The notes: generated by a model from the letters alone, not told the origin. DNA of 64,000 bases from a virus (IMGVR_UViG_3300008262_000055), one strand, 5' to 3'. Positions 8,378 through 63,507 are shown, counted from the first letter of the stretch. Program-made: numbers and translations.

Positions 8378-8390
8378 TTATAATTCTCCG

Positions 8391-40976: not shown

Positions 40977-40987
40977 GTTTTTCTCCA

Positions 40988-41533
40988 TTAAGTCCATAAA
41001 TCAAAATTTATTATACATCGAGGACCCTGTTTAGGAATCCCACCACCGTGTAGTATTTCTCCGTCGAATAATACCACACGACCTTTTTTTGGTTCCACTG
41101 ACTGAACAATAATATTGTTCTTATCAAAGAATACTGTAGGTCCGTCGGCATCATTGACATAATAAATGACTACGGTATGCTTGCCGGGATAATCGACATG
41201 TGGTGCGTAGTGTTTTAACTCAGTGTCATACGGTACAGTGATATAAATCCTTGCTACCATTATGTCCTTGAGAGTTAAATTATTTTTGGCACAGGCCGCT
41301 TGGGCAATCATACCAAAGTTATCTAAATGTTCAGAAACTCTAGTATTAGATTTTAAAATGTGTACAAATGACAGCGGAGGGTGTGTTAGTTCTTTCTCCT
41401 CAGCAGTTGATTCGTACTTACATCTAAAGTCAACGGTTGGATGAACAAACTCCTCTCCGTTGACTCCTAATGTAATCAGCTCATAATAATCTTGAAGATA
41501 CTCAGGAATCAAATCATCCCAAACTTTGATCAT
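40988..41533 (-). CDS. 2OG-Fe(II) oxygenase
   Basis: PHVD (HxD), IYYVN..DG.T.FF, VEPKKGRVVLFDG..LHGG, PRCIINF. Confidence 0.8.
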   Translation of the reverse strand: MIKVWDDLIPEYLQDYYELITLGVNGEEFVHPTVDFRCKYESTAEEKELTHPPLSFVHILKSNTRVSEHLDNFGMIAQAACAKNNLTLKDIMVARIYITVPYDTELKHYAPHVDYPGKHTVVIYYVNDADGPTVFFDKNNIIVQSVEPKKGRVVLFDGEILHGGGIPKQGPRCIINFDLWT

Positions 41534-45483: not shown

Positions 45484-46371
45484 CGGTATATCCGCAGCAC
45501 AAGTACACCAGTCTCTTGTACATGAGATTGGCTCTAATGGAACAGCAAATGTTCCTGTATAGATATTTCCTAGGCTACCACCTACACGACAAGTGGCACG
45601 ATGTACTTCTCCGTCCCAGTTAATCATTAGACTTTCAATGCCCGCATGACATTTCCAATCTTTGAAATTGTTTATTTTCTTTTTGATGATATCGTTAGCG
45701 TGTAGATAAACTTTTTCTCCGCTATCTTCAGTTATTACTGTGTTAGGTTTGACCGTGGCATCTTTTGATAGTATCCATTCGAGGTCTTTACCGTCGTATC
45801 TCATGTCATCGAAAACATTGTGGTCACCTTCTGTCCAACGTATTCTACGAACAGCATACTTAATTCCTGCTTTGTCTAAAAATTCAACTGCTTCTCTAAC
45901 ATCACTCATATGATTATGATGTGCCATAACATTAACAAAAAAGTCTAGATTAGTATCTGCGAACTTTAACTCGTGGATAGTACCTAATACCCTTTTCCAA
46001 TCGTACTCAAAGTGTAAACTTATTACCATATGATTAAAAAATATTGAATTATCTATGTACCATCTAGCAGTTCTAGTGCCGTTAGTTGTTACATTGACCC
46101 AGAAAATATCTTTACGCTTCATATAATCGAATAGATCTTCTATATCTGGATGTACACAAGGCTCCCCTCCGGTTAAACTAATACGTAAAGGTTTACCTAA
46201 TTCGCAGAGTCGGTCTACAGTTTGTTCTAAAATATTGATATCAGTATGTGGACTGTAATGATCGTGAATGCTTTCCGGACAGTATGAGCAGTCGTAATTA
46301 CAACGCTTGCCAATATTCCACTCAACTTTAATTTGATCTTGATGCGGCCATGAGGAGGTCACATTATACAT
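45463..46371 (-). CDS. Radical SAM protein (subfamily A)
   Basis: CNYDCSYC, TGGEP, TTNGT, WKCHAG...TC...SCTRDWCTC; start re-assigned to 46371. Confidence 0.9.
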   Translation of the reverse strand: MYNVTSSWPHQDQIKVEWNIGKRCNYDCSYCPESIHDHYSPHTDINILEQTVDRLCELGKPLRISLTGGEPCVHPDIEDLFDYMKRKDIFWVNVTTNGTRTARWYIDNSIFFNHMVISLHFEYDWKRVLGTIHELKFADTNLDFFVNVMAHHNHMSDVREAVEFLDKAGIKYAVRRIRWTEGDHNVFDDMRYDGKDLEWILSKDATVKPNTVITEDSGEKVYLHANDIIKKKINNFKDWKCHAGIESLMINWDGEVHRATCRVGGSLGNIYTGTFAVPLEPISCTRDWCTCAADIPLTKFKF

Positions 46372-47632
46372 ATGATTTAAATTCCGGTGTAATGTCTTCA
46401 AACTTCCATGTGTCTCTTGATTTATCCAGTCTATGATTGAATTCAACACAGTCGTTCCATTTATCATGTTGATCACGTGCTTGTAGATAGTTGATGTTGT
46501 CTTTTATCTGACCTAACGTATATTCTAAAAGCTGCGGATGTTCTTTAACTAATTTAAAGTCCTTGACTCGTAGACTCAATGCTTCTAATTTTTGTATCGC
46601 TAACTGTTTTAATTCTTTAGGTAACACCTGTGCTGATAATACTTTAGGATATTCTACCCTATGGGTATGAAATACTATGCCTAGATCATTTAAGAAGTAT
46701 TCGCATATTTTATCTAAGGTCAAAATATTGCTTACTTGTACAGTAACGGCACCTACTATACGACTTATATTAGATATAGTCTGTATCTGTTTGATGTTGT
46801 GTACCAGCTCGGCCCACGAAGCATTGCCCCTTATGTATTCATAGGTGCTGCCAACGCCGTCAATGCTAACATTTACTGCTACAGATTTAAATTTGGGCCA
46901 ATACTCCCAGACAGTGCGATTGCTTTTACCTAACATACTTAGATTAGTAGCATACTTGATTTCAATTTGATGCCCGTAAGGAGCCAGCATGTCTAATATG
47001 CGATAGTGCTGGGGATCCATTAACGGCTCTCCACCAGCAAACTCTACCCGGCGAAAGTGCGGTAGATTCTTTTCTAGACTAGCCCACCATTGTTCATTAT
47101 CTTGAAACTTATCTAAGAAAGGTTTTTCTTTGAGATTATGTTCTTTTACAATATGAAACATAATATTATTTTCTTTTTCGTAGAATTCTTCTACTTGATC
47201 CCAATCGTTCCAACTGGTGCTATCCATAGGATGACACATACGACATTTAAGATTACACAAATTATTCAGCTTTAACTCCATAGTAGGAATTTCAAAAGGC
47301 ATTTCAAACTCTTTGTTAATCTTGTGATTAGCATTAGGATACAATTTAATACGTGCTTCGGGTATTTTACCGTTAATGTGTCGTTGTCTAAGACTTTCTA
47401 CACCCTGATCCTCCAGACTGAAACAGGGTTCGCATTCTGGTGGACGAACACCGCCAAGCACCTGCTTGCGTATTCGTTTCATATTATCGTTATTCCAGAT
47501 CTCTTCTAAAGTTTGTTCTTGTATCTGACCAATAGGATGACTGCGACAACATACACATACTGCCCCATCTTCTCGTGTAGCAAGTCCTGTAAAAGGATGC
47601 ATACAAAATGTTGAAGGATTACTGTTGTTCAA
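46364..47632 (-). CDS. Radical SAM protein with N-terminal twitch-like Cys domain (subfamily C)
   Basis: FCMHPF...VCC...CEPC...E..G..SLR; CNLKCRMC; AGGEPL. Confidence 0.9.
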   Translation of the reverse strand: MNNSNPSTFCMHPFTGLATREDGAVCVCCRSHPIGQIQEQTLEEIWNNDNMKRIRKQVLGGVRPPECEPCFSLEDQGVESLRQRHINGKIPEARIKLYPNANHKINKEFEMPFEIPTMELKLNNLCNLKCRMCHPMDSTSWNDWDQVEEFYEKENNIMFHIVKEHNLKEKPFLDKFQDNEQWWASLEKNLPHFRRVEFAGGEPLMDPQHYRILDMLAPYGHQIEIKYATNLSMLGKSNRTVWEYWPKFKSVAVNVSIDGVGSTYEYIRGNASWAELVHNIKQIQTISNISRIVGAVTVQVSNILTLDKICEYFLNDLGIVFHTHRVEYPKVLSAQVLPKELKQLAIQKLEALSLRVKDFKLVKEHPQLLEYTLGQIKDNINYLQARDQHDKWNDCVEFNHRLDKSRDTWKFEDITPEFKSYV

Positions 47633-48350
47633 TTGCCCATGCCCTTTCTTTACACCAAAAACATTCTCCGCAAATAGGTACTTTTTGGCCTGGTTTATAA
47701 TTTTTATAGTCTAACTTTTTAAATGTACCCTCGCAGCTACGAGTAATATCAAATAATTTTTGTAAACCTAGATCTTTATACTGTTTTATTATCCAAGACT
47801 TTTCAATGAATCTGAACGGATGGACAGCAGTACGTCCCATATGGGTCATTAGTTTTAGGTGCTGGTTGTCTTCTGTTTCCTCTATATCTCTAGTAGGCAT
47901 GCCTTGAAAATCTACATCACGTGGATTCCTGGTTACAGCATTATAATAGGCATTGACATTTTCTCTATGACAGATATATTCAGCATAGGCACGTTGTTCA
48001 ATATTATCTCCACTGACTATTTTACCATACTCGTCGACCATTGTTGGGCCTTGATCACCCCACTCTAATTCAGGTGCGATAAAATTTGTATGTTTTTTAA
48101 AACCTATATGATGGAATTCTTGGAATAAAAATCTGTAAACCATCTGAGCATCGTGTTGTTGCCACGGCTTAGTTTTCCAGCAACGTATGTGATTAATGAT
48201 ATGTACATTAAACGGATAAAGATCGTTTTTTCTAACATAATCGCAGAGAATGTATGCCAGCAAAGCACTGTCGGCACCGCCACTGACACTTATAGCTATT
48301 TTATTCCAACTAGGGTCGAATGGAATAGTTAGTCCGTCTTGATTAATCAT
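47619..48350 (-). CDS. QueC-like PP-loop ATPase
   Basis: SVSGGADS (PP-loop), TRSC...CGECFWCKER (QueC-type Zn ligands). Confidence 0.7.
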   Translation of the reverse strand: MINQDGLTIPFDPSWNKIAISVSGGADSALLAYILCDYVRKNDLYPFNVHIINHIRCWKTKPWQQHDAQMVYRFLFQEFHHIGFKKHTNFIAPELEWGDQGPTMVDEYGKIVSGDNIEQRAYAEYICHRENVNAYYNAVTRNPRDVDFQGMPTRDIEETEDNQHLKLMTHMGRTAVHPFRFIEKSWIIKQYKDLGLQKLFDITRSCEGTFKKLDYKNYKPGQKVPICGECFWCKERAWAIEQQ

Positions 48351-49191
48351 TGTTTTCCAAATATCTAATTAATGGGCTAACTCCTACCGGCTCACCTTGT
48401 CTTAGAGCTAGGTGAATACTGTTAGTAGGTGTTAGGTCGAAATCTTTACAAACTTTGTAGTATCTATCTCCGTGTGTGTTCCAGAGGTAATCATTTGGCA
48501 ATTTGCGTATGAAATGTAACCCTATCATTGCCAACGCTCTATTGTTCATATTAAAATCATTCATGATAGTAATAGAATCTTGTTTAAATTTTTTGGTCCA
48601 TCTAAGACCTATTCTATTCCATCCTAATCCTAACCCTTTAGAGAGGCTAATTGCCACAGATACCACACTAGGGTGATTAAGATTGAAACTAACAGAGCGG
48701 CAACACGTGATCCACGCTCCGTCGATATGTACTGGGATATTTTTTTCCAAACATTCATTTAAGATGTCCTCCATGTTTTTGTGGGGTTGACCAACACTAG
48801 GAAAAGGCATAGCTATAATTAGTGGGAGTCCTGGGATTAGAGATCCTACATCTTTAACAAACGCTAACCCCAATCGGTCGTGGTACCTATAGTCTCCACT
48901 TACAACTTGTAGAGGTCCGTCCATATAAAGACTATCTATAAACTGTGTACAACCTATGACTATGTCTTTTCGTTCAAATGATTCTAGCCCCTGGATAGAA
49001 TTTAATTTAGAAGACATTAACCACTGTTCGGTTTCTATTTTAAATTGATCATATACTGAGTCAGAAATGTCTTTATCTATGCGTCCATTTAGTACATCTG
49101 CGATTAGTTCTTCTATACGGTTATCGGATAACGGTGAAGGTCTATCCACTTCTAGATATTGAGCAGAATAAATTGGTGCTATGCGAATCAT
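48343..49191 (-). CDS. PLP-dependent enzyme, fold type I-like (short)
   Basis: VHIDGAW, ISLSKG (Schiff-base Lys position), RIG; start 49191 follows TTAAATA. Confidence 0.6.
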   Translation of the reverse strand: MIRIAPIYSAQYLEVDRPSPLSDNRIEELIADVLNGRIDKDISDSVYDQFKIETEQWLMSSKLNSIQGLESFERKDIVIGCTQFIDSLYMDGPLQVVSGDYRYHDRLGLAFVKDVGSLIPGLPLIIAMPFPSVGQPHKNMEDILNECLEKNIPVHIDGAWITCCRSVSFNLNHPSVVSVAISLSKGLGLGWNRIGLRWTKKFKQDSITIMNDFNMNNRALAMIGLHFIRKLPNDYLWNTHGDRYYKVCKDFDLTPTNSIHLALRQGEPVGVSPLIRYLENND

Positions 49192-49195
49192 GAAA

Positions 49196-49226
49196 TATTT
49201 AACCCTAAAATAGTAGCATATAAATA
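49196..49226. promoter_or_regulatory. Divergent late promoters inside the enzyme island
   Basis: TTAAATA on minus (49196-49202); TATAAATA on plus (49219-49226), 4 nt before ATG 49231. Confidence 0.65.
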
Positions 49227-49230
49227 TTTC

Positions 49231-50658
49231 ATGGTAGAAAAAAATAAAGTATTTTGGATCCAATCAACAGATACACAGTTAGGTCAATGGCAAAAACAAA
49301 TTAAAGAAGTCACAGGATCTGACAGTTTTTGTGTGTTGCCATGGATACATCTAGCAACTAGACCCAATGGCGACATGAGGATATGTTGTGTAGCCAACGC
49401 ATCCGGAGCCGAAAGTGGTGATTATACCGTGGGGCTCGTAAAAACAGAAAATGGTGAGCCTGCTAATTTTGGTAAAGACTTGCCCATCGATGCTTTTAAT
49501 AATGACTACATGAAATCGGTACGCAAAACAATGTTAGCAGGTGAAGTTCCTGCTAGCTGTTTAAAGTGTTATGAAGAAGAACAGCAGGGTATTGCTAGTA
49601 AACGTATATGGGAAACTGGTACTTGGTATCTAAACGAAAAACTAGATATAGAAGAACTAATTAAAGAAACGCAAGAAGACGGATCTGTGCCTTATAAACT
49701 AAGATATCTAGATCTTAGACTTGGTCATACTTGTAATTTAAAATGTATTATGTGTAGTCCTCATGACAGCAGTCAATGGGTACCTGAACATAAAAAAGTT
49801 TATCCAATATTTCAAAGCCCGTTAATTAAGAAACAAATGGACTGGAGTCCTAGCCAGTTTAATAATTACTGGCATGAGAATCCTCAATTTTGGGAACAGG
49901 TATTTGATCAAATACCTAACATTCGCCAATTGTATTTTGCCGGTGGCGAGCCTTTATTGATAAAAGAACATAGAAGATTATTAGAAGAAATTATTGATAG
50001 AGGTTATGCTGACCAAATCAGTCTACGATATAACACCAACGGACTATTGATTAATGAAGAAATAATTTCAGTCTGGCAGAAATTTAAAAAAGTTAAAGTT
50101 GGTTTTAGTCTCGACGGCATGGAGCAACGTGGACATTATATAAGATATCCTTTAGATTGGAATACCATAGAACAAAGTCTTAAATTATTAGATTCGGCTC
50201 CAGATAATATTCAAACTAATATTGCCTTTGCGGCACAGATTCTTAATATAAAACACGTTCCTGAGTTTATTAAATGGAAAGTAAAAAGTAATTTTAAAAA
50301 AATAAACTTTGATAAAAATGCCGCAGGGCAGACAATGGGTGGCGGATTAATGGGAGTTCATTTATTATGGATCCCTACGTGGCTAAGTCTTAGAGTATTG
50401 CCTGCTGCTGATAAAAAAGAAATTAGAAAATTGTTTACTGAACTTCAAACCTGGTTATGGGACAATTATACACACGATACAGAATTTTGGGAAACAAATC
50501 CTTACGGATGGAAACGGTGGGAGGGTATACTAGATTGGATGGATGCCGAGGATCATACTAATTTACTTCCAGACTTCCGTGAATATATTACTACTATGGA
50601 TCGTCAGCGAGGTACTGATTTTAAAAATACATTTCCTGAACTAGCACATTTATTATGA
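49231..50658 (+). CDS. Radical SAM protein with N-terminal twitch-like Cys domain (subfamily C)
   Basis: FCVLPW...ICC...CLKC.EEE..G..SKR; CNLKCIMC; AGGEPL; NTNG. Confidence 0.9.
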   Translation: MVEKNKVFWIQSTDTQLGQWQKQIKEVTGSDSFCVLPWIHLATRPNGDMRICCVANASGAESGDYTVGLVKTENGEPANFGKDLPIDAFNNDYMKSVRKTMLAGEVPASCLKCYEEEQQGIASKRIWETGTWYLNEKLDIEELIKETQEDGSVPYKLRYLDLRLGHTCNLKCIMCSPHDSSQWVPEHKKVYPIFQSPLIKKQMDWSPSQFNNYWHENPQFWEQVFDQIPNIRQLYFAGGEPLLIKEHRRLLEEIIDRGYADQISLRYNTNGLLINEEIISVWQKFKKVKVGFSLDGMEQRGHYIRYPLDWNTIEQSLKLLDSAPDNIQTNIAFAAQILNIKHVPEFIKWKVKSNFKKINFDKNAAGQTMGGGLMGVHLLWIPTWLSLRVLPAADKKEIRKLFTELQTWLWDNYTHDTEFWETNPYGWKRWEGILDWMDAEDHTNLLPDFREYITTMDRQRGTDFKNTFPELAHLL

Positions 50659-51323
50659 TTTTTTTAACTCCGTACTCTGTAGACCAAACGCTCATCAAAG
50701 ATGCTGTAGCTTCTATAGGATCGTTTGATCATAAACAAACATTAAATGTGCCGTCAGGAGATTTTTTCTATGACGGCTGGTCATTAAAAGAAGAATTTAT
50801 TAACACTCCATGGCAGAAAATTTTAGATAGCATAAAAGAACCCATTGGGGAAGCACGTATTATTACACTAGAATCTGGTACAAATTACTATAGTCATTCG
50901 GATATTGATGATCGGTGGCATCTTTCACTGGATGGTAATCAATCATTTCTAATCGATCTAGAAGATAAAACAATGTTTGAGACAGTCCAAGATGGTCAGT
51001 GGTATTTTATGAATGCTGGAAAACTCCATACAGCGGCTAATTTTGGTCAAGTACCTAGACGACAGCTAGTCGTTAGGAATCTCTTAAAACGAAATATACT
51101 TGTAGATCCTGTTACAATAGAAATAACCAAAGCAGAGGAAACATTTGATTACAGATATCAGTTTGATCACAGAATAAGTCCATGGTTAAATACAGCTAAT
51201 AAGCATGGTTACATTTCTAATTTTAGTTACAATTTAGACAAAGTAATTTTATCAATAGAAAAAACAAAATTAGATGAGCTGTTAGTGTTATTAGAAAATT
51301 TATTTAGGGCGAAAATAATATGA
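50655..51323 (+). CDS. Asp/Asn beta-hydroxylase-like 2OG oxygenase
   Basis: YSHSD, RWHL, WYFMNAGKLHTAAN, RRQLV. Confidence 0.7.
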   Translation: MIFLTPYSVDQTLIKDAVASIGSFDHKQTLNVPSGDFFYDGWSLKEEFINTPWQKILDSIKEPIGEARIITLESGTNYYSHSDIDDRWHLSLDGNQSFLIDLEDKTMFETVQDGQWYFMNAGKLHTAANFGQVPRRQLVVRNLLKRNILVDPVTIEITKAEETFDYRYQFDHRISPWLNTANKHGYISNFSYNLDKVILSIEKTKLDELLVLLENLFRAKII

Positions 51324-51898
51324 AATTTGTAGGAAACACCGCAGATATAATTGATTGGGATGAATTGTACACTACCATCAATGCTAGTAAAACAGACACA
51401 TGGGTTAGAAAAATAACCTGGGATATGGAGCTTCCGGAGAACATATCGGAAACATATAAGAGAGATCAGTACAGAATTTTTTATCCTCTAATAAAAGTTG
51501 GATATGATAAGATGGAACATATACGGTGGCGGGTTTTCCAGCCTGGAATAGATTATGCTCAAAGTATCGATGATCAATTAGCCGAATTTGTAGGATGTAG
51601 ACCATTTCTTAGTTGGATAAGTTGTATGGAACCAGGATGTATGGTTCCAATGCATATGGATACTTATAGATTAGATAAAATGAGAGAGTTTTATGACAAC
51701 AAAGAAAAAGTAGTTAGATGTACAGCTCATTTTCCTGATCCGTCTTTTGGTCATGTGTTTCTTTGTGAAGATACTTATTGCCATAATGAAGCAAAAGGTA
51801 ATGTTTACATGTGGGATGATCCAGCTGCGTTACATGCCGGATGTAACTTTGGTATACACAAAAAGTATCTTTATAATTTTTTAGGTTTTAGATTGTAA
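51320..51898 (+). CDS. 2OG/cupin oxygenase-like
   Basis: PGCMVPMHMD, GHVF, YMWDD...HAGCN. Confidence 0.7.
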   Translation: MKFVGNTADIIDWDELYTTINASKTDTWVRKITWDMELPENISETYKRDQYRIFYPLIKVGYDKMEHIRWRVFQPGIDYAQSIDDQLAEFVGCRPFLSWISCMEPGCMVPMHMDTYRLDKMREFYDNKEKVVRCTAHFPDPSFGHVFLCEDTYCHNEAKGNVYMWDDPAALHAGCNFGIHKKYLYNFLGFRL

Positions 51899-52524
51899 TG
51901 ATTGTATATACTCCAATAGACATTTCTATTAAAATTCCTAACAATGATATCTTAAAAGAATATTTTTTCAATAATTATATGACTAATCTAAAAGAAACAT
52001 TTGGATATACGTCATTGTTATGTGCTTTAATTAGTAGGAATTCTGTAATTGATTGGAGAGACGCTACTCAAGTATTTGCTGACCACGCTGGGGATACGTT
52101 ATATTATGCCCCTGGAACAAAGGAAATTTTTCCCGAACTTGTAGAGTTTATACACAGCTTGCCTTATAAAGAAATTATCGGAGCAGTATTAAATTTACAT
52201 ACTGAATACCTGCCGCCTCATCAAGATGAATTTATTAATTTAAATGTTAATGGTCCTGAGCGATATAATGTATTACTAACACCCCATTATGAACAAGAGT
52301 CTTTTTTTATTTGTAAAGAAAAAGACAGCGAAAAAATTTATCCTAAAATTTTAAAAGATTATCCTGTGTACGCATTCAGCAATAATAAAGTATATCATGG
52401 AGCAGATAAAGTACTAGACCAAAGAATTATTTTAATCTGTGCTGGAATTTTAGATGAAGAAAAACACAACAACTTAATAAAAGCAAGTTCGGAAAAATTT
52501 AAAGACTATGTTATACGAGTTTGA
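51898..52524 (+). CDS. 2OG/cupin oxygenase-like
   Basis: LPPHQD, YAFSN..VYHGA, RII. Confidence 0.65.
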   Translation: MIVYTPIDISIKIPNNDILKEYFFNNYMTNLKETFGYTSLLCALISRNSVIDWRDATQVFADHAGDTLYYAPGTKEIFPELVEFIHSLPYKEIIGAVLNLHTEYLPPHQDEFINLNVNGPERYNVLLTPHYEQESFFICKEKDSEKIYPKILKDYPVYAFSNNKVYHGADKVLDQRIILICAGILDEEKHNNLIKASSEKFKDYVIRV

Positions 52525-53041
52525 TTGGAATACTGTTCTTAAAAACTTGCCTTTACAAGGAGGTGAGTCAAAAACCCCATCGGCTGATTTTTATAGAAAC
52601 TTAGATGGAAGATTTGATTCGATAATAAATCAATGGAAACAGGCAGGATACGATCAATGTGATAGTGTTGAGTGGATAAACTATTATCCTGATTCACACT
52701 ATGATAGTAATGTAGCAGAAAAATTTAGTATATGGTCAAATTCTAAATGTGCTAGAAATTGGATCAGTAGGATGCGTCCTGGAAAAATGGCACCATTCCA
52801 TCAAGACATAGACGATAATTTAGAAGAATATCTTGCTATGGGAGAACTGGTCAGATTCAGTGTGTTTATTAGTCAACCTAGTCCTGGCGGATTATTTCTG
52901 CTTAAAGATCAAGTCTATCACAATGAACCTCAAGGAAAGGTTATTATGTGGGATGATTATTTAGACTGGCATGCGGGTGTTAATTGCGGACTCACAGATA
53001 AATTCATGTTCCATTATTTAGGTGTTAAAAATGAAAAATAA
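52508..53041 (+). CDS. 2OG/cupin oxygenase-like (paralogue of 51320-51898)
   Basis: PGKMAPFHQD, MWDD..DWHAGVN, K.MFHYLG. Confidence 0.7.
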   Translation: MLYEFDWNTVLKNLPLQGGESKTPSADFYRNLDGRFDSIINQWKQAGYDQCDSVEWINYYPDSHYDSNVAEKFSIWSNSKCARNWISRMRPGKMAPFHQDIDDNLEEYLAMGELVRFSVFISQPSPGGLFLLKDQVYHNEPQGKVIMWDDYLDWHAGVNCGLTDKFMFHYLGVKNEK

Positions 53042-53597
53042 TTATTGCGTAGATTTAAAATTACCAGTACCACATCCGTTAAAAGATCCTACTGTATTAA
53101 ATCAAACTGGATATGCTCCAGAAATATTCTTTGCAGATCCATCAAACGTTAATGAAGAATTTACTGCTTGGTTAGATCAACACGATCTAGTAATGACATA
53201 TCCACCTTTGGTTTTTTATACTCCACCGAGGAGAGAATGCGGATTTCATATTGATGGTGATATTATCTGTGATCGTGCTGTAATGAATTGGATAGTACAA
53301 GGTTCTGGTAGTTTAATGCACTGGTATACACTAGCACCTGATGCTAAAATTACCGATCAAGAAATTACCCAAGCAGGTACTCCTTATACTAGATATACAG
53401 AGGATCATGTTGTACATTTACACAGTCAAGAAGTTAAATGGCCTAGTCTAGTACAGACTGGGCTTCCTCATAAAGTTACTAATTATGGCGACGAATCTAG
53501 ATGGTGCCTTAGTTGCGATATTAGTCTAAAATCTAATCCTGAAGCAGGCCTGACTATGGAACAAGCCAAAGAGATTTTTAAACAATGGATCATCTAA
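53031..53597 (+). CDS. 2OG/cupin oxygenase-like
   Basis: GFHIDG, PSLVQTGLPHKV, RWCLS. Confidence 0.65.
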   Translation: MKNNYCVDLKLPVPHPLKDPTVLNQTGYAPEIFFADPSNVNEEFTAWLDQHDLVMTYPPLVFYTPPRRECGFHIDGDIICDRAVMNWIVQGSGSLMHWYTLAPDAKITDQEITQAGTPYTRYTEDHVVHLHSQEVKWPSLVQTGLPHKVTNYGDESRWCLSCDISLKSNPEAGLTMEQAKEIFKQWII

Positions 53598-54235
53598 CTC
53601 AAGCACAACAAATTTTAAGATCAGGAATTCCTTGGTTAGAATTAGACATACCATTCGATGTTGATGTATGGAAACAACAGGCATTAGAAGCTGAAAACTA
53701 CTATCAAGAATATAGAGAGTCTAATAGTAAAAATTGGAGTAGCTGTTGCCTACACGGATTAGCCGTTGATAAAACTTATACTGCCGAGCAGTATGGTCAC
53801 AGCGAATATCAGGCACCTTATCAATATACCGAGCTGGCTTATCGATGCCCTATAATTACAGATTTTTGGAAGAACAAATTTCCTGCTGAACGATATACTA
53901 GAATAAGATTTATGAAAGTCGGAGCAGGCGGTATGATCAATTGGCATAATGACGGATCTATACCGGAAGACATTGATCCGTTGATGTCGATATTACCGAT
54001 TAACCTAGCAATTATTCATCCTAAATCTTGCGATATGGAAATACAAGGACACGGTATCGTTCCTTGGAAAGAAGGAAAAATAATGATGTTAAACATTAGT
54101 AAAAATCATGCTGTATTCAATCGAAGCAGCAAAGATAGGATACACATGATAGCTAATATAATAGTAGGCAATCGAGTTGAAGAATTTTGCGATATGCTAA
54201 TAAGATGTTATAATAAACAATATGGTAGAATTTAA
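53585..54235 (+). CDS. Asp/Asn beta-hydroxylase-like 2OG oxygenase
   Basis: RIRFMKVGAGG.INWHND, G....LNIS..HAVFN.S...RIHMI. Confidence 0.75.
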   Translation: MDHLTQAQQILRSGIPWLELDIPFDVDVWKQQALEAENYYQEYRESNSKNWSSCCLHGLAVDKTYTAEQYGHSEYQAPYQYTELAYRCPIITDFWKNKFPAERYTRIRFMKVGAGGMINWHNDGSIPEDIDPLMSILPINLAIIHPKSCDMEIQGHGIVPWKEGKIMMLNISKNHAVFNRSSKDRIHMIANIIVGNRVEEFCDMLIRCYNKQYGRI

Positions 54236-55586
54236 TACGCCGGCAGGCTCTCCTGACATAGTTTTTATTTTTCTTGATAGGACTGGAAAAAGTTCTAGTG
54301 ATTGGTCACGAGAAATAATAAAAAATCTCAGTGACTATGTTTTGGTAAACATACAAAATCACGGGTTCAATGTTATACAGGGATTAGACGAAGACAGTCT
54401 CTTACAACACGCTTCAGAAAAATACAGTCATGCTGTAGTGTTAAGCACAGGTACAGAATTTATCAACGGTGACGAATTTTTTCACGAAACAGAAAAATTA
54501 GTTTATGGAGACAAAGACTTTTTTATAATGGGACATTTAGCTGACAGGGACGACGGCTATTATGAACTACACGAACAATGTTATATAATTGATCTTCAGA
54601 AATTAAAAAGATTAGGTTTTCCTAAGATGGGAGATTTTTCTTATTATGACAAACATACTCAAATAGCACCCATTCGCAGCGAAGATAATGTACACGACGA
54701 TTATACTCCGCTGTGGATTAAACCAGGTGATACTGATAAAACTTATAAACATAAATGGCACGGCTGGAATATTATTTGGGTAGCACTTAAAAACAATTTA
54801 CCTCTTTTAGTTTTTCCTAAAGAATTTAGAAATAACAAAAAATTTTATTACCCTAATTACGAAACAAGTTTTATACCAGCCAGTTCTTACTTGTACGGGA
54901 AACAAAGTATAGCTAGCCAAACATTGTTTTATCCTCATAACACTGAAGAAATGTATGAGATAAATTTTAATGGTCCAATAAGACAACTGGTCATCCAAGC
55001 TAGTGGGTTACAATGGATTGATTATCTAACAAAATACGGGTACGATGAAAACACTGTAGTCCGATTTGTAGATTATAATTTGTTTGCTGTTGAAACTATG
55101 ATGGCGATTGTGAAAAGATGGAATGGTTTAAATTATGATCAATTCATTACTGCTGTAGTTGGCGGTCGTGCTGCTCTAGTAGGTAAAGAAGCACGAGACT
55201 GGTTAGCAACTTCTGTTAAACTTGAAGATGTTAAGATAGATCCTGCTGTATGGAACGATATTAAATCGAAAGTAAAGTTTGATTTTAAACATGAAGACCT
55301 AGTTCTTAATATAGGACTACCAATAAATTCGTGGCTTGACAATGTGCCTAAAACACTAATTCATCTCAGCCATATTTTTAGCTACGATCCGGCTGCGGCA
55401 TTTGTGCCTTTAAAACATAGATTATATAACGAAAACCTATTGTTAAAAAAGATTAGAGAATACAATCCCAACGCTCATATTTTAATGGGTAGATCTTGCG
55501 AAGGATTCACAAATCAAACAATGGGTTCAATTGATCTTAAATCTTTAAAAACTCCAACTTGGCATGCCAACGGTGAATGGTTATGA
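54222..55586 (+). CDS. Hypothetical protein (454 aa), possibly two-domain
   Basis: Long ORF overlapping both neighbours; no motif confidently recognised. Confidence 0.7.
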   Translation: MVEFNTPAGSPDIVFIFLDRTGKSSSDWSREIIKNLSDYVLVNIQNHGFNVIQGLDEDSLLQHASEKYSHAVVLSTGTEFINGDEFFHETEKLVYGDKDFFIMGHLADRDDGYYELHEQCYIIDLQKLKRLGFPKMGDFSYYDKHTQIAPIRSEDNVHDDYTPLWIKPGDTDKTYKHKWHGWNIIWVALKNNLPLLVFPKEFRNNKKFYYPNYETSFIPASSYLYGKQSIASQTLFYPHNTEEMYEINFNGPIRQLVIQASGLQWIDYLTKYGYDENTVVRFVDYNLFAVETMMAIVKRWNGLNYDQFITAVVGGRAALVGKEARDWLATSVKLEDVKIDPAVWNDIKSKVKFDFKHEDLVLNIGLPINSWLDNVPKTLIHLSHIFSYDPAAAFVPLKHRLYNENLLLKKIREYNPNAHILMGRSCEGFTNQTMGSIDLKSLKTPTWHANGEWL

Positions 55587-56194
55587 CATTTAAACGAATA
55601 GCAGTCACTGGCCATACTAGTGGTATAGGAAAAGGCCTATATGATTATTTTTTATCAAAAGGCTGCTCTGTAAAAGGATTTAGTTTAGATAATGGTTTTG
55701 ATATCTCAATCAGAGAGAACATTGACAGGATCGTAGAGTTAACTAGAGATTGCGATTTATTTTTTAACAATGCGTATCATCATTATCAGCAAGTTGAAAT
55801 TGCTAGACTTTGGCAACAACAGCATTGGAGTGATCACCATTTTATTGTTAATATAAGTTCTATGGCAGCAGAACCCTTAGCTAACATTCCAGAAGAGTTT
55901 CCGTGGCTTGAAGAATACGGTAAAGAAAAATACGCTCTTAATAAGATAAGTTGGGATATAAATCACAGCGGAAGTAAGTGTAAAAGCATTATTGTTATGC
56001 CAGGTATTGTACAGACTAACTTTTATAATCCCTATGACACGGAAGAAAATAACGGTTTAGAATTGTATAATAAAGTCACAGAAACAAACAGTATTATTAC
56101 TGTTGATGATCTAGTAAAAACAGTTGAACTTATTTTACAAAGCATTAACGGTAGAAATTTTATATCAAGCATCACAGTATTAAATGGTTATTAA
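55583..56194 (+). CDS. Short-chain dehydrogenase/reductase (SDR)
   Basis: VTGHTSGIG, FFNNA, NISS, YGKEK (YxxxK), PGIVQT. Confidence 0.8.
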   Translation: MTFKRIAVTGHTSGIGKGLYDYFLSKGCSVKGFSLDNGFDISIRENIDRIVELTRDCDLFFNNAYHHYQQVEIARLWQQQHWSDHHFIVNISSMAAEPLANIPEEFPWLEEYGKEKYALNKISWDINHSGSKCKSIIVMPGIVQTNFYNPYDTEENNGLELYNKVTETNSIITVDDLVKTVELILQSINGRNFISSITVLNGY

Positions 56195-56615
56195 AACAGA
56201 CATTAACACTTGGATTGAAAAACTGACAGCCAAGCAAATCATGCTTGGAGGATTGTCAGTTTGTCCCTATGCTAAAAATGCTGAATATGAAGTTGTTGAA
56301 ACTGACGGCAGCAATATAGAACCACCGCCATGGGATTTTGAGCTATTGATTTATGTATTACCAGAAAGTTGGACTCAAGATGAGTTATTTCAGTTAGCTA
56401 ATGAATACGGAAAAATTTTTCCTTCATTGGTGTTCCTACCAGATCATAAGGATAGGTATACAGAAATTAACGGAGTACAGACTAACAACGGCAAACATAA
56501 TCTTTTATTGTGCCAGTGGAGAGATAATTTAGTTTCTGCTAGAAAGAAGTTAGCATCTACTAACTATTACGATTTTTGGAACCAAGAATATTTGGAAGAG
56601 ATTTTAAAAGCATGA
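56184..56615 (+). CDS. DUF1415-like hypothetical protein
   Basis: LSVCPYAK, FLPDH. Confidence 0.45.
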   Translation: MVIKTDINTWIEKLTAKQIMLGGLSVCPYAKNAEYEVVETDGSNIEPPPWDFELLIYVLPESWTQDELFQLANEYGKIFPSLVFLPDHKDRYTEINGVQTNNGKHNLLLCQWRDNLVSARKKLASTNYYDFWNQEYLEEILKA

Positions 56616-57652
56616 TATGGACTAATTGGGATCCTCTTAAAGAAGTTATTGTAGGGAATTGTCCTAGGGGTGCCTACAGCAATAAATTAGCTCAAATATT
56701 CAGTGAAACTAGAGAAGATCTAGATAATTTAGCTGATTACTTAACCAAGCTAGGTGTACGTGTACATCGTCCAACAGTAACTAACATGGACAAACATATA
56801 GATCTAGGTTATTTTAAAATTGATAATCCCACAGCACCTATTGTTCCACGAGACCAGTATTTGGTATACGGCGAGACTGTATATCAAACATACACTAGTA
56901 TGCCGGATCGTTACTTAGACAGTAAAAACTATAATCATATTTTTAAAGAATTATTTGAGCGTGGACACAATTGGCTTAGTATGCCTCCACCTAAATTAGA
57001 AACACTTGTAGACAAGTGGTGGGCCAATGGCGAATATGTTTATCATGAGCAGTTAAAAGATCAAGTGCTGTGGCATACTGCTACAATGTTTAAGTGTGGA
57101 GATAAACTAATCACTAACACCAAGGGTCCAGGCAATAGTTTAGGCTTAGAGTGGATGAAACGTAATCTGCCAGCAAATACCATAGTAGATGTAGGTAACA
57201 CACACCAACAAGGATTTGGACATATAGATCACGGCTGGTTTATGACCAACGACGATCTAGTATTCTGTGTAAACAAATCGTGGGTACCAGAACCGTTACT
57301 CAACAAGCAGATCATAGAACTAGAAGACCATTTTGAAAAGTTTGATGACAGTAAATTTATTGCTGATTATTCTGCTACTGACGGTAAGTTTAGCGATGCG
57401 TGGATTGACAAGTGGCTAACCCAATGGAAGGGTTATGCTCAGGAAGTATTCTTCGACAGCAATGTACTAGTTATCGATAGCCAGAATGTATTGTTTAGCA
57501 ATTACCAGCCTGGCATTTTTAAAGTTATGGAACGTTATGGCATTAACTGTCATGTAGTTCCACAACGCCACGGATTATTCTGGGAAGCGGGTATCCATTG
57601 CCTAACTTTAGATTTAGTCAGAGATGGCGAATGTAGATCTATAGTAACTTAA
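56612..57652 (+). CDS. Amidinotransferase (glycine / inosamine-phosphate amidinotransferase family)
   Basis: NWDPLKEVIVG, PRD, GHID, GIHCLTLD (catalytic Cys); 346 aa from ATG 56612. Confidence 0.85.
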   Translation: MIWTNWDPLKEVIVGNCPRGAYSNKLAQIFSETREDLDNLADYLTKLGVRVHRPTVTNMDKHIDLGYFKIDNPTAPIVPRDQYLVYGETVYQTYTSMPDRYLDSKNYNHIFKELFERGHNWLSMPPPKLETLVDKWWANGEYVYHEQLKDQVLWHTATMFKCGDKLITNTKGPGNSLGLEWMKRNLPANTIVDVGNTHQQGFGHIDHGWFMTNDDLVFCVNKSWVPEPLLNKQIIELEDHFEKFDDSKFIADYSATDGKFSDAWIDKWLTQWKGYAQEVFFDSNVLVIDSQNVLFSNYQPGIFKVMERYGINCHVVPQRHGLFWEAGIHCLTLDLVRDGECRSIVT

Positions 57653-58804
57653 CGCTATTGTTAATTTAAATTCTAATTCATCAAAATAATCCTGTGTAGC
57701 ATTTACAGGAATTACGATCAATAACCCAGACCCGCCCTCATTCCACATACCTGCACTGATACCATATTGATAAAGAAATTTTTCAAATATTTCTTCTAAC
57801 GGTTTATCATTCAATAATTGTAGATTAAACACTAACCCGTGATGATTAAAGTTTTTAATTAACTTTTGATCTTTCAATCGATGAAATACTTTTTTAGCTG
57901 TGTCTAATATTTGGGGATATCGATCAAATAATTGTTCCTCTTCGATAATATCCAAATAGGCAATAGTAGAATAAATTCCACTGAGACTAAAACTATAACT
58001 AAAACCGTGTGTAAAAACTTGACCTTTAATTTTAGAGAATATCTTTTCGTTAATAAGAGTAGCACTGAGGGGGAAATAGCCAGATGTAAATGCCTTGCCA
58101 ACGGTGAATATGTCAGGCTCTACAATTCCAGACCAGCCAAAGAAAGTACCAGTCTTCCCACCGCACATGGCGATGTCATCGACAATAAGAACTATGTTTT
58201 TATCGGTACATATCTTGCGTAGGCTGTTCCAGAAATCTTGACCCGGGTCATATAATCCATTTTGCCAACTTGCTGTTTCTATAATTACAGCACAAAGGTC
58301 ATCAGTGATATTGTCTAAATTATAGTCGCTGACAACACAACGAGGATCTTTACCAAAGAAGCCTGTCATGTAAGTTGCGTCACTGACACTTGAACTTAGA
58401 TATGTACTACCGTGATAACTTTTCTTAAATCCTAAAAACTTATCGCGACCGTTGTATAGTTGTGCTAATCTCAAAGCACCTTCGACGGCATCACTACCGC
58501 TTAAAGCAAATACACTTCTATATCCTTGGCTTAGATCATATAGTCGTTGGCTTAGTTCAAGGACGGCAGAATTAGTTGTATAAAATTCGCCCGAACAAAA
58601 AGGAAGATCTTTCATCTGTTGTTCAACACGATCAATGATATCTTTCCTTTTGAACCCCAACGGAAAACACCCGCAGTTGCCAAGACTTAGATCTAACAGT
58701 TGATTACCGCTTTCTATAAATCCGTAATCTGTATATTCTGAAATCTCTCTTACAGAAACATTTTCGTTGGTAACATACGGAAAAATTAATTTGTTTATAG
58801 ACAT
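57614..58804 (-). CDS. Class III aminotransferase (PLP)
   Basis: SGSDAVEGAL, SYHGST, LIVDDI...GKTG, TVGKAFTSG (Lys), HGFSYS. Confidence 0.85.
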   Translation of the reverse strand: MSINKLIFPYVTNENVSVREISEYTDYGFIESGNQLLDLSLGNCGCFPLGFKRKDIIDRVEQQMKDLPFCSGEFYTTNSAVLELSQRLYDLSQGYRSVFALSGSDAVEGALRLAQLYNGRDKFLGFKKSYHGSTYLSSSVSDATYMTGFFGKDPRCVVSDYNLDNITDDLCAVIIETASWQNGLYDPGQDFWNSLRKICTDKNIVLIVDDIAMCGGKTGTFFGWSGIVEPDIFTVGKAFTSGYFPLSATLINEKIFSKIKGQVFTHGFSYSFSLSGIYSTIAYLDIIEEEQLFDRYPQILDTAKKVFHRLKDQKLIKNFNHHGLVFNLQLLNDKPLEEIFEKFLYQYGISAGMWNEGGSGLLIVIPVNATQDYFDELEFKLTIALSYYRSTFAISD

Positions 58805-59388
58805 ATAGTTAAAGATACTCGTTTAGAACTTAGATTTTCTACTCCGTGTATTGTAGTGACATCTAATTCATGCCATGTTTTTTGAGGTATTATTTCAGAC
58901 TCAACAATATCTAATCTTGTATATGGAATAACAACCTGCGGAGTAATTTTTAAATCTTTATATTCATCCTTTGGTTTATAAAATGTAGTACTAGCTGCCC
59001 CACCAGTTTCTAACAAATAGTTTACTGCCTTTGATCTAGATTCGTCAATGTGGGGAGGGACCAAAGACCCGTTTGACATTACTTGAATAAATGCTATACA
59101 CTCAAACGGAATGTTAGTTTTTAACCAATCTTTAACTAGATCACTAATCTCAATAAAATCGTAATCTGCTAAATTTGGAAATATTTTTTTCCCCTCGGAA
59201 TACCGATATCCAATATTGGTGATTGGATCGTAATCAATATTCCCTATAATACTTAAAGTTTTTAGATTTGTATTAATTAACAGTTCGTCATTTTGGTGAC
59301 AGTTGGCATTTTTAGATATTGTATCGAATATATCTTGCTCTATTTCAAAAGGTAGAGGTGGAAGATTTAGATAATTAATATAGCTCAT
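58795..59388 (-). CDS. 2OG/cupin oxygenase-like
   Basis: VPPHID, AVNYLL..GG, WHELD...HGV, RVSLTI; TATAAATA on minus at 59395-59402. Confidence 0.7.
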   Translation of the reverse strand: MSYINYLNLPPLPFEIEQDIFDTISKNANCHQNDELLINTNLKTLSIIGNIDYDPITNIGYRYSEGKKIFPNLADYDFIEISDLVKDWLKTNIPFECIAFIQVMSNGSLVPPHIDESRSKAVNYLLETGGAASTTFYKPKDEYKDLKITPQVVIPYTRLDIVESEIIPQKTWHELDVTTIHGVENLSSKRVSLTICL

Positions 59389-61023: not shown

Positions 61024-62090
61024 TGTTTTACGATACTATAAAAATATTACAGATAGAAAACAGCAGTCTATGCAATGCTGCCTGTCCGCAATGTGTACGA
61101 GAATGGAAAAATGGCGATTACAGTTTTTTTAAACAAACATTTATTCCAACTGATTTTTTTAAAAATCGTATACCACAATACATCTATGACGGATTAGAAA
61201 GAATAAATTTTAGTGGCTCTGTTGGTGATCCTTGTATGGCACCAAATTTAATTGATGTAGTCAATGTAATACGTGAAAAGAATCCTAATATTGAAATACA
61301 AATTACAACTAACGGCGGTATGCGTACTCCTAATTGGTGGCAGAATTTAGCTAAATCTTTAGGCAAAACAAAACACTATGTTATATTTGGAATAGATGGA
61401 TTAGAAGATACAAATCATATCTATAGGGTCAAAGTTAAATGGCGTAACTTAATGGATAACATTGATGCTTTTATCCAAGCAGGCGGTGTAGCCGATTGGC
61501 AATTTATACCGTTCAAACATAATCAACATCAAATTACTGCTGCTAGAATGATATCTCAAACTATGGGATTTAGAAACTTTTTTCTTTTAGCTAGTAATAG
61601 ATTTATGACTGAAGAATTGTTTGAAAAAAAATCTTTTGGTAGCGATGGTAAACAATTGATTCCGCCAATGAAAGAATATCAATTTAACATGTTTCAAGAT
61701 GATGACAGACCAACTAGCGATATTGAATGGGCAACACAGGCTGAAAAAAATTGTATTAAATGCCAAGCACAGGAAGACCGAGAAATATTTATTGATGTAG
61801 AAACGCACCTATTTCCTTGTTGTATGACAGCCGGTGCTAGGTTAACTATGGATGCTAAAGATCAAGATGGTTTTGAAAAATTATGGTTAAGATGGGGCGG
61901 AGATAATATTAAATTAGATGTTAACAATTGGGATATGATTGTTAATGGAAGATTTTTTTCTACTATACAAAAAAGCTGGAATAAGAAATTTTCCGAAGGT
62001 AGACTAATTCCATGTTCGGCATCATGTTCAGTGGGTAACTCAAATTATGTCGGTGTTCAGACTGTACAGTTTTTTGTAAATCCTAGGTAA
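61023..62090 (+). CDS. Radical SAM / twitch-SPASM protein (subfamily B)
   Basis: CNAACPQC, SGSVGDP, TTNGG, KCQ...FPCC...CSASC. Confidence 0.9.
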   Translation: MFYDTIKILQIENSSLCNAACPQCVREWKNGDYSFFKQTFIPTDFFKNRIPQYIYDGLERINFSGSVGDPCMAPNLIDVVNVIREKNPNIEIQITTNGGMRTPNWWQNLAKSLGKTKHYVIFGIDGLEDTNHIYRVKVKWRNLMDNIDAFIQAGGVADWQFIPFKHNQHQITAARMISQTMGFRNFFLLASNRFMTEELFEKKSFGSDGKQLIPPMKEYQFNMFQDDDRPTSDIEWATQAEKNCIKCQAQEDREIFIDVETHLFPCCMTAGARLTMDAKDQDGFEKLWLRWGGDNIKLDVNNWDMIVNGRFFSTIQKSWNKKFSEGRLIPCSASCSVGNSNYVGVQTVQFFVNPR

Positions 62091-62720
62091 AGGATCATTA
62101 GGCCATTTAATATAGTTTAAAAAACTGTGCTGATTTACTAACGCCATATCAACCCTATTGTTGTTAACAACTTTATCTATAAAATCAGATCTTTCTTGAT
62201 TTAATATTGGCCTGTATAAATCTATTTCAATAGGTTGTTCGCAGTAATCACTGGCTGTATAAAATGCGAATGCTTTTAGTTTTCCGTTAGTGTCTATAAA
62301 ATGATAACATGGATACATGGTAACTTTATAGACATTTTCTGTTTTTATATCTCGACATATAGTTTCTAATTGATTTTGCCAATCGACACAAATGCTATCT
62401 AGTGTTCCTTTAGAATTAATAAATGTTTCACAACAAACATCATTCCATTCTAGATATATCTTACGCCCTTTAAAATCAATATCTCGCAATCTAACACACC
62501 AGTTATATTTTTGAAATTGTGTTAGATATCTAACTTCTCTATTAAAACAATCGGATATTAGATTTTCTTCTACTGGATACTCTCGATAGCTGTTATTATT
62601 AAAATTCATACAGAGTTCTGATCGTTCTCTGTTTACTAAAGGTTCGTAAATTGCTCCGGGTCTAGTTCTATACCCGTCTTTATCTATACCATAGTAATGA
62701 AACCAATCAGTATGACTCAA
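62040..62720 (-). CDS. Protein-kinase-like-fold protein, degenerate
   Basis: F.REVRYL, YKVTMYPCYHFID..GKLKAFAFY aligns loosely with catalytic loop / DFG positions; paralogue of 63531. Confidence 0.4.
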   Translation of the reverse strand: MSHTDWFHYYGIDKDGYRTRPGAIYEPLVNRERSELCMNFNNNSYREYPVEENLISDCFNREVRYLTQFQKYNWCVRLRDIDFKGRKIYLEWNDVCCETFINSKGTLDSICVDWQNQLETICRDIKTENVYKVTMYPCYHFIDTNGKLKAFAFYTASDYCEQPIEIDLYRPILNQERSDFIDKVVNNNRVDMALVNQHSFLNYIKWPNDPLPRIYKKLYSLNTDII

Positions 62721-63507
62721 GATGATCTATACCTAACTGCTTACGGAACGCTTCTGTGAACTTGCCATCAATACGTAAAGAATATGATTGCTCCATTATC
62801 TTTTCACCGCCATGCCAGTCAACATCATTCCACCATGCTGCTCGAGTATTAAGATATGTTTTGTTTTTATTTTCTGGATCCCACAAATACATTGCCTTCT
62901 TTGTATTAGGACGGACATGTATAAACTCATTGCGATGGGGTTTGACTACATCAATGCCATTTTTAGCATCCAAGTCTCTATGTTCAAATGGAATACCGTC
63001 AGCTTCACAGTGGAAGAATATCACACGCCCTATATGTTCAAATACTGTGCCTTGTAATTGCTCAACCCATTTGACTACATTAGGGAAATAAGCGGCTTCT
63101 TCTGTTAACTTACGTGGTGCTGTCCTATCATCCCAACTACCCTCTTCCCATAGGAAATAGTAAATGTAAGGATCATAGGCACCCATGGCCATTTTAAGAT
63201 AGCGTGTAAATTTGTTACGTTGTTTATAATTGTTAAAATCTTTAAACAAATCAATGCCACCCAGATAGATGGGATCATCTTTAGGCAACGACATAAATTC
63301 GTCCATGGCTTGATATATAGGTTTCCAATGTAGCCTGTAACTCATATTATCAAAATTAAAACCGGGCTTCATCCAAGTGCCTTCTTTGGCAAACTCTCGT
63401 GCTTCGGCAAACCCTCTTAATATTTCGGGCTGTAGTTTCTCAAACTGGTCCATATTTAAGTATGGCTCCATATCAAAATACGCTTGTTCGTTTATACCTT
63501 TGATCAT
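62707..63507 (-). CDS. 2OG/cupin oxygenase-like
   Basis: PFEHRD, WWND.DWHG, SLRIDG. Confidence 0.6.
   Translation of the reverse strand: MIKGINEQAYFDMEPYLNMDQFEKLQPEILRGFAEAREFAKEGTWMKPGFNFDNMSYRLHWKPIYQAMDEFMSLPKDDPIYLGGIDLFKDFNNYKQRNKFTRYLKMAMGAYDPYIYYFLWEEGSWDDRTAPRKLTEEAAYFPNVVKWVEQLQGTVFEHIGRVIFFHCEADGIPFEHRDLDAKNGIDVVKPHRNEFIHVRPNTKKAMYLWDPENKNKTYLNTRAAWWNDVDWHGGEKIMEQSYSLRIDGKFTEAFRKQLGIDHLESY

Follow-up and report, generated by a model that had tools for sequence, protein, structure and literature searches.

Guanidine-forming enzymes are known from bacterial antibiotic, toxin and virulence-factor pathways. The two of solved structure that most resemble the enzyme described below are HsvA (Erwinia amylovora/Pseudomonas syringae; PDB 5wpi), which moves the amidino group of arginine to the primary amine of a polyamine in the phevamine pathway (PMC6187163), and StrB1 (PDB 1bwd), the scyllo-inosamine-4-phosphate amidinotransferase of streptomycin synthesis. 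We found no report in the literature of a guanidine-forming enzyme with a demonstrated role in a phage, and the gene context described here has been noticed in phages before (in 2010 and 2025) but never explained. Campylobacter phages CP220 and CPt10 carry five radical S-adenosylmethionine (SAM) genes and a gene annotated as a 'glycine amidinotransferase' (Timms et al. 2010; PMC2853527), in S-SCSM2R (2025) an inosamine amidinotransferase is grouped with an aminotransferase and a radical SAM gene as 'antibiotic synthesis genes' (PMC12801897), and cyanophage Syn9 has tandem arrays of dioxygenase and tryptophan-halogenase genes for which Iyer et al. (2010) proposed peptide or collagen-like targets (PMC2938197). 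Here we analyze a 64,000-nucleotide stretch of DNA (hereafter "the window") of virus IMGVR_UViG_3300008262_000055, an uncultured freshwater relative of the T4-like cyanophages (cyanomyoviruses), in which genes for a 143 amino acid (aa) protein that we call P2, a 346-aa amidinotransferase and a class III aminotransferase lie together (Table 1). We estimate a probability of about 0.4 that these three form the core of a phage amine-guanidinylation module that is linked to polyamine-type metabolism.

The three genes lie in an island that includes at least seven radical SAM genes, a PP-loop ATPase gene, several genes for Asp/Asn-hydroxylase-like oxygenases and a tryptophan-halogenase homologue. CP220 and CPt10 resemble the window in that an amidinotransferase homologue is found among at least five radical SAM genes in a T4-like phage, but identity to the window's enzyme is only 23-27%, CP220 has no P2 homologue, and the 15-kb region of CP220 that was inspected contains no class III aminotransferase gene. 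CP220 gp085, which is encoded upstream of its amidinotransferase, was considered as a P2 homologue and rejected on comparison. Syn9 and S-SCSM2R are, like the window's source, T4-like cyanomyoviruses in which many 2-oxoglutarate oxygenase and halogenase-like genes are present in the surroundings; the papers that describe them give annotation only, and neither the trio of P2, amidinotransferase and class III aminotransferase nor the link to SAM decarboxylase (SpeD) discussed below is described there. In contrast to the window's class III enzyme, the aminotransferase of S-SCSM2R belongs to the AHBA_syn/DegT type.

The open reading frame (ORF) of the amidinotransferase also opens at TTG 56576 (358 aa). 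Its homologues span 96% of the TTG-started frame and have lengths of 344-348 aa, so the true start is ATG 56612, which overlaps the P2 stop codon as ATGA. The protein has no match in Pfam or NCBIfam, and the solved structures that it matches are exclusively amidinotransferases: a single-sequence phmmer search of the PDB gave E values of 4e-23, 8e-23, 2e-13 and 1e-12 for HsvA, StrB1, AGAT and SxtG, respectively, and a profile built from 22 phage homologues gave 4e-36, 3e-32, 1e-25 and 4e-24. HsvA is thus the best solved relative (128 bits in the profile search) and StrB1 the second best (115 bits), where bit scores serve as a proxy for phylogenetic closeness. The N-terminal motif TNWDPLKEVIVG (WDPLKEVIVG) aligns with the equivalent motif of HsvA (WDPLEEVIVG), StrB1, AGAT and SxtG, in agreement with an earlier reading of the window (the sequence-only reading), which had pointed to a WDPLxEVIVG motif common to StrB1 and the glycine amidinotransferases. 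On this homology the membership of the 346-aa protein in the HsvA/StrB1/AGAT/SxtG amidinotransferase family (pentein superfamily) is unambiguous. HsvA and the phage enzyme also have in common the PRD and HxD motifs and the C-terminal HC(A/L)TLD motif of the catalytic Cys; the phage enzyme is about 40 residues shorter than HsvA and has a clade-specific insert at residues ~240-290. StrB1 shares these motifs and is similar in length (348 aa).

Are the residues needed for catalysis present? AGAT residue numbers were transferred through the alignments, in which PRD supplies Asp170, GHID supplies His303 and Asp305, and IHCLT supplies Cys407. The equivalents of Asp170, His303 and Asp305 are kept in all 48 phage copies and that of Cys407 in 47 of them (the sole exception is truncated); the IHCLTLD of the window's enzyme aligns with FHC(A/W)T of the solved enzymes. 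At the position of AGAT Asp254, the triad Asp of the FDAA motif (FDAAD in HsvA), all 48 copies have His (LWHTATMF; residue 155 of the window's 346-aa protein), and this column aligns with the Asp of HsvA, StrB1 and AGAT in the single-sequence and profile alignments alike. Judged from these alignments the phage amidinotransferases are a distinct clade with a predicted Cys-His-His active site, as against Cys-His-Asp in the solved enzymes. The strict conservation of the change argues for a working rather than a decayed enzyme, and its uniformity gives enzymologists a defined question. Amidinotransferases of this kind form more than 400 clusters at 90% identity. In CP220 gp086 (L041, 6848-7909) the triad Asp is kept (VDAAQ), and LPLD stands where the window's clade has GHID; in this low-identity alignment gp086 may lack the catalytic His of that motif.

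The second enzyme, whose gene converges with that of the amidinotransferase as the sequence-only reading had described for the SDR-like, 143-aa and 346-aa genes together (SDR, short-chain dehydrogenase/reductase), matches Pfam Aminotran_3 (PF00202) with 151 bits (E 5e-44; cut-off 30.5). Its Schiff-base Lys (K237), pyridoxal phosphate (PLP)-binding Asp (D209), E176 and the SGxD and YxG motifs are invariant in 35 family members. Among solved structures it comes closest to omega-amine, putrescine and polyamine:pyruvate transaminases (E 3e-32 at best); it also aligns over its full length with acetylornithine aminotransferase (3nx3, residues 29-392), which is of similar length, and it matches TIGR00707 argD at 3e-39. 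No NCBIfam equivalog cut-off is reached (best 156 bits or less, against cut-offs of 372-729). By these similarities the aminotransferase is of the omega-amine/ArgD-like class III type and not of the DegT/StsC type that acts on sugars and cyclitols. Amination of keto-sugars and scyllo-inosose is the work of the DegT/StsC family, and an aminotransferase of this type acts in the streptidine pathway together with an inositol dehydrogenase and a kinase.

Because close relatives share gene order by descent, linkage that survives rearrangement is stronger evidence of a functional connection than simple adjacency. Gene contexts were drawn from IMG/VR loci. A first scan gave 39 loci with amidinotransferases 44-88% identical, and 13 more came from a second. 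The ORFs of the initial 39 loci were clustered and mapped, and the counts that follow refer to the 38 with a called amidinotransferase ORF. The class III aminotransferase gene is adjacent to that of the amidinotransferase in 27 of the 38, within three genes of it in 31 and present in the locus in 33. For P2 the corresponding values are 18, 26 and 27, and for the SDR-like gene they are 3, 19 and 23. At least eight gene orders occur in separate clades of the amidinotransferase tree, and linkage is kept down to 43% identity. The orders are (i) P2, amidinotransferase, reverse aminotransferase; (ii) aminotransferase, P2, amidinotransferase, then 2-7 tandem N-terminal-twitch radical SAM genes; (iii) P2, amidinotransferase, SpeD, aminotransferase; (iv) P2, amidinotransferase, two radical SAM genes, SDR, oxygenase, aminotransferase; (v) P2, reverse SDR, amidinotransferase, reverse aminotransferase; (vi) a SpeD-P2 fusion with reverse amidinotransferase and aminotransferase; (vii) P2, amidinotransferase and an AspH-like gene, beside a baseplate gene; and (viii) amidinotransferase alone. 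These data support the conclusion that the amidinotransferase is coupled to its neighbours and is not a stand-alone Arg:Gly amidinotransferase. The sequence-only reading had named an enzyme uncoupled from its surroundings as the finding that would refute it; what we see instead is linkage to the aminotransferase and P2, and in many cases to the SDR-like gene as well, that persists while the gene order changes. As a separate observation, up to seven tandem N-terminal-twitch radical SAM paralogues directly follow the aminotransferase-P2-amidinotransferase trio in L036 (a 289-kb IMG/VR contig, downstream of 10984), L031 and L029.

The connection to polyamine-type metabolism comes from SpeD, a classic cyanophage auxiliary gene whose purpose is still debated. 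A distant P2 relative of 265 aa has an N-terminal AdoMet_dc domain (45.8 bits; cut-off 25), and three diverged loci (L042, L043 and L044, each at 8001-8798) contain an uninterrupted 265-aa SpeD-P2 ORF, 66-69% identical to that relative, which adjoins the amidinotransferase and aminotransferase genes. In addition, a 118-aa SpeD-like gene family lies within the island in 13 loci of the first set. Its member is between the amidinotransferase and aminotransferase genes in L038, beside the aminotransferase gene in L022, 2 kb upstream in L020, and, in ten loci from the clade to which the window belongs, 8-10 kb off at the right edge of the island; a 269-kb close relative likewise has SpeD at the island edge. 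From the 8-10 kb spacing in its clade, the window's own copy is expected just past base 64000. The fusion, the insertion between the two enzyme genes and the recurrent adjacency are events independent of one another, and each ties the module to the aminopropyl/polyamine branch. The fused-type SpeD, used as a query, matched pelagiphage SpeD genes and not cyanophage ones. The hsv system differs in its partners, since no ATP-grasp protein like HsvB or HsvC is found among the scanned window ORFs (42.4-64 kb), and the phage enzyme is linked instead to P2, the class III aminotransferase and SpeD.

P2 usually lies directly upstream of the amidinotransferase. It matches phrog_10325 (E 9e-21), and its family is large and mainly viral: a profile search gave 504 cluster representatives at 50% identity, and a scan of genome contigs with the P2 alignment found zero cellular relatives. 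An invariant Cys-Pro in the motif VCP[YF]AK is its sole universally conserved feature (the Cys is residue 27 of P2). The name DUF1415-like that this protein had been given is weakly grounded: P2 has no Pfam match, sub-threshold DUF1415 matches occur in only 4 of 49 distant relatives, the name has one atlas neighbour cluster in its favour, and in four related contigs neither the DUF1415 (PF07209) nor the YqcI_YcgG (PF08892) profile matched anything at E <= 10. An AlphaFold2 (AF2) model of P2 (pLDDT 89) has as its best fold match AglA (9ub3; Z 6.3, root-mean-square deviation 3.9, 136 of 143 residues; the next best has Z 4.1, and the Foldseek E value is 0.4), and the P2 profile gave only noise against PDB sequences, with no AglA match at the sequence level. 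AglA is the prototype YqcI/YcgG enzyme, whose haem is ligated by Cys44 and which hydroxylates a guanidine N-H (PMC12866846). The resemblance of the modelled P2 to this thiolate-haem guanidine N-hydroxylase is modest and suggestive, and we treat it as a lead. In two cultured cyanomyoviruses the P2-family gene has a fixed position just upstream of the baseplate wedge genes gp25/gp6, as S-PM2 p080 (L127, 26205-26669) and S-SCSM2R ORF100 (L128, 57104-57571).

The SDR-like protein matches adh_short at its N-terminal end (E 1.7e-4, 21.6 bits), below the Pfam cut-off of 26.6, and its sequence has TGHTSGIG, NNA, Ser94 and YALNK, so that the N-S-Y-K set is intact. The Gly motif, Asn and Ser are kept in the family alignment and the Tyr is lost in distant members; dehydrogenase activity is for this reason predicted to be likely for the window's protein and not general in the family. 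The 454-aa protein encoded by the gene upstream of it has no sequence match in Pfam, NCBIfam, PHROG or PDB. Its AF2 model (pLDDT 72) gives weak Foldseek matches (E 3e-3), and in the VIA comparison its N-terminal part has Z 9.7 to the PBCV-1 A64R capsid glycosyltransferase, with dozens of glycosyltransferase A (GT-A)/nucleotidyltransferase chains at Z 8-9, and its C-terminal half has Z 8-8.8 to INMT/PNMT-type methyltransferases. Residues ~8-228 are accordingly modelled as a GT-A/nucleotidyltransferase fold and residues ~224-454 as a class I methyltransferase-like fold, both as predictions. An atlas neighbour cluster of this family (score 0.84, a lead only) hints at fusions with Asp/Arg hydroxylase domains.

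How might these proteins work together? The aminotransferase would convert an aldehyde or ketone to a primary amine, and the SDR-like enzyme or neighbouring oxygenases may supply the carbonyl. The amidinotransferase would take the amidino group of L-arginine onto its conserved Cys330 (numbered in the 346-aa protein), with release of ornithine, and then pass it to the amine to give a guanidine, and P2 would act as a dedicated partner in the module. What is observed is the homology, the conservation of catalytic residues, the linkage of the genes and the fusion to SpeD; the order of these steps, arginine as the donor and the class of the acceptor are inferred. The sequence-only reading had proposed a hydroxyl-ketone-amine-guanidine route modelled on streptidine synthesis. 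Its carbonyl-to-amine-to-guanidine part is a reasonable reading because the linkage persists through so many rearrangements, whereas the streptidine analogy is not supported, given the class III aminotransferase, the kinase and inositol dehydrogenase that were not found, the slightly higher score of HsvA than of StrB1, and the SpeD fusions and adjacency. For the acceptor we tentatively favour, at clearly less than even odds, a polyamine-like molecule: a di- or polyamine-type compound, small and soluble, from the SAM-decarboxylase/aminopropyl branch. A cyclitol or classical amino-sugar seems the less likely substrate.

Several observations weigh against an amine-guanidinylation module tied to polyamines. 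The triad Asp is replaced in every phage copy of the amidinotransferase. No spermidine synthase-type aminopropyltransferase (PF01564) was found in five related contigs. Marine loci L047-L057 have P2 and the amidinotransferase without the aminotransferase, and many cultured cyanomyoviruses have P2 beside the baseplate genes gp25/gp6 and no amidinotransferase, so P2 is not solely an amidinotransferase partner. Other points lean toward sugars: StrB1 scores nearly level with HsvA, the gene translationally coupled to the SDR-like gene encodes the predicted GT-A/nucleotidyltransferase-fold and methyltransferase-like protein described above, CP220 has two genes with nucleotide-diphospho-sugar-transferase domains downstream of its amidinotransferase (with one radical SAM gene between), and S-SCSM2R ORF266, an amidinotransferase-like gene, adjoins KdsA/KdsB and glycosyltransferases.

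These last points, among them the GT-A/nucleotidyltransferase fold encoded just upstream of the SDR-like gene, keep alive the alternative in which the module makes a guanidino-sugar or guanidino-cyclitol: a hydroxyl on a (nucleotide-)sugar or cyclitol would be oxidized by the SDR-like enzyme, aminated and amidinated, and a glycosyltransferase would attach the product to the virion or the host envelope. The intact N-S-Y-K set of the directly upstream SDR-like gene fits such a route. We nevertheless think it unlikely, though slightly less so than the other alternatives. The partner aminotransferase is class III and not DegT/StsC, and about 25 ORFs between 42.4 and 64 kb matched no kinase family, contrary to the kinase-like genes that the sequence-only reading had placed nearby, and no GFO/IDH-type (inositol) dehydrogenase or nucleoside diphosphate (NDP)-sugar dehydratase family. 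StrB1 differs from the phage enzyme both in its triad and in its pathway partners. Outside the window's own clade, moreover, the 454-aa gene is found with the module only in L022, and the fold matches of its product are middling.

A second alternative, which we also regard as unlikely and place after the first, is that the target is a macromolecule: the module would guanidinylate amino groups of a virion protein or peptide, such as those of lysine-like side chains or of side chains aminated by an enzyme, and the hydroxylases, halogenase-like enzymes and SPASM/twitch radical SAM enzymes of the island would likewise serve to modify protein. Asp/Asn-hydroxylase-type oxygenases and radical SAM enzymes of the SPASM/twitch kind, both known peptide-modifying families, are indeed abundant in the island. 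In marine loci a T4 baseplate gene neighbours P2, the amidinotransferase and an AspH-like gene, the positions of P2 in S-PM2 and S-SCSM2R noted above point the same way, and a tail-fibre-like Mtd_N protein follows the module in L043. An amidinotransferase-like protein, other than that of the 'antibiotic synthesis genes', was reported in the S-SCSM2R virion proteome (PMC12801897), and peptide or collagen-like targets have been proposed for cyanophage dioxygenase arrays (PMC2938197). On the other side, the SpeD fusion points to small-molecule metabolism, no precursor peptide was found, although no search aimed at one was made, and the match of S-SCSM2R ORF266 to the window's enzyme is confined to the C-terminal 35% of the latter, with the His region absent from the alignment. 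All characterized amidinotransferases and class III aminotransferases act, to our knowledge, on small molecules.

A little more doubtful than either is a plain rewiring of host arginine and ornithine metabolism, in which guanidinoacetate, homoarginine or agmatine-like products would be made from amines common in the host and the aminotransferase would remove the ornithine by-product in the manner of an ornithine/acetylornithine aminotransferase. The length and end-to-end alignment of the aminotransferase are those of the acetylornithine/ornithine type, and because some clades have the amidinotransferase without the aminotransferase, or alone, the acceptor may be a common metabolite. AGAT, however, is a weaker match than HsvA and StrB1, the argD/OAT equivalog cut-offs are not reached, and one would not expect a one-step auxiliary gene to be so tightly linked to P2, the SDR-like gene, and oxygenase and radical SAM genes. 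Least probable is DNA-base hypermodification, in which an amine-bearing base (aminomethyl-deazaguanine or an aminoalkyl pyrimidine) or a nucleotide precursor would become a guanidine: a QueC-like PP-loop gene and QueE-like radical SAM matches are present in the island, and the Campylobacter phages that share amidinotransferase and radical SAM clusters carry fully substituted guanine analogues, but TGT/DpdA (PF01702) has no match at E <= 0.01 in two large related contigs (76-80% complete), the linked enzyme families act on small molecules, and we know of no guanidinylated DNA base.

Returning to the guanidinylation of a polyamine-like amine, a more specific version can be put forward, although we would give it poor odds: P2 and the amidinotransferase may be the missing downstream partners of phage SpeD, and with the aminotransferase they may make a guanidino-polyamine (e.g. 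an amidinated aminopropyl compound) or a guanidinopropyl donor from decarboxylated SAM, for condensing a large genome or modifying a target during takeover, with P2 as a new class of small enzyme, possibly a thiolate-haem enzyme acting on guanidines. The module is widespread in uncultured aquatic T4-like phages, and if its product were a guanidino-polyamine or a guanidinylated virion or DNA component, the chemistry would be new to phages, and three gene families that are so far unexplained would gain a function open to testing.

Table 1. Genes of the proposed guanidinylation locus and its surroundings in the window (positions counted from the first base of the window).
Feature	Coordinates	Strand	Basis or remark
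Radical SAM protein	46364-47632	-	Above NF033640 cut-off
PP-loop ATPase	47619-48350		Only ATP-using family found among ORFs of 42.4-64 kb
Radical SAM protein	49159-50658	+	Above NF033640 cut-off
191-aa protein, family f11	53022-53597	+	Travels with the module in distant architectures
Two-domain 454-aa protein	54222-55586	+	Viral-only family; overlaps start of SDR-like gene
SDR-like Rossmann protein, 205 aa	55577-56194	+	adh_short below cut-off, with visible motifs
P2, 143 aa	56184-56615	+	phrog_10325
Amidinotransferase, 346 aa from ATG	56612-57652	+	HsvA/StrB1/AGAT family homology
Class III PLP aminotransferase, 396 aa	57614-58804	-	Pfam Aminotran_3
197-aa protein	58795-59388	-	Overlaps aminotransferase gene by 10 nt; co-transcribed with it

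The amidinotransferase gene is the last in a run of 11 plus-strand genes (49159-57652) in which consecutive genes overlap by 1-20 nt and are translationally coupled, and its 3' end overlaps that of the convergent aminotransferase gene by 39 nt. Promoter and terminator scans gave nothing above shuffled controls. The 197-aa protein has no match in Pfam, PHROG or NCBIfam, and its family is present in 21 related loci, mostly adjoining the aminotransferase. The 191-aa f11 protein has no Pfam match; its family adjoins the aminotransferase in L042-L045 and is within the island in 20 loci. The two radical SAM proteins of Table 1 are paralogues with an N-terminal twitch and exceed the NF033640 cut-off of 170 bits with 335 and 400 bits. 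At the other end, ORFs 62040-62720 and 62707-63507 have no PDB sequence match.

At the DNA level, neither the region nor a 25-kb part of the window matched any of 50,697 phage records. The kinship with T4-like cyanomyoviruses rests on the tail-fibre and virion PHROGs found in the window and on its subtilisin-like protease, which shares 56-58% identity with its counterparts in Synechococcus phages S-CREM1 and S-H38. Two further genes of the window deserve mention. A 2841-aa ORF (11701-20226, minus strand) lies in the structural region beside tail-fibre-like genes, and a 230-aa protein (40305-40997, minus strand) has a strong Pfam Bax1-I match (E 4e-54), by which it would be a Bax inhibitor-1 family membrane protein of the BI-1/YccA type.

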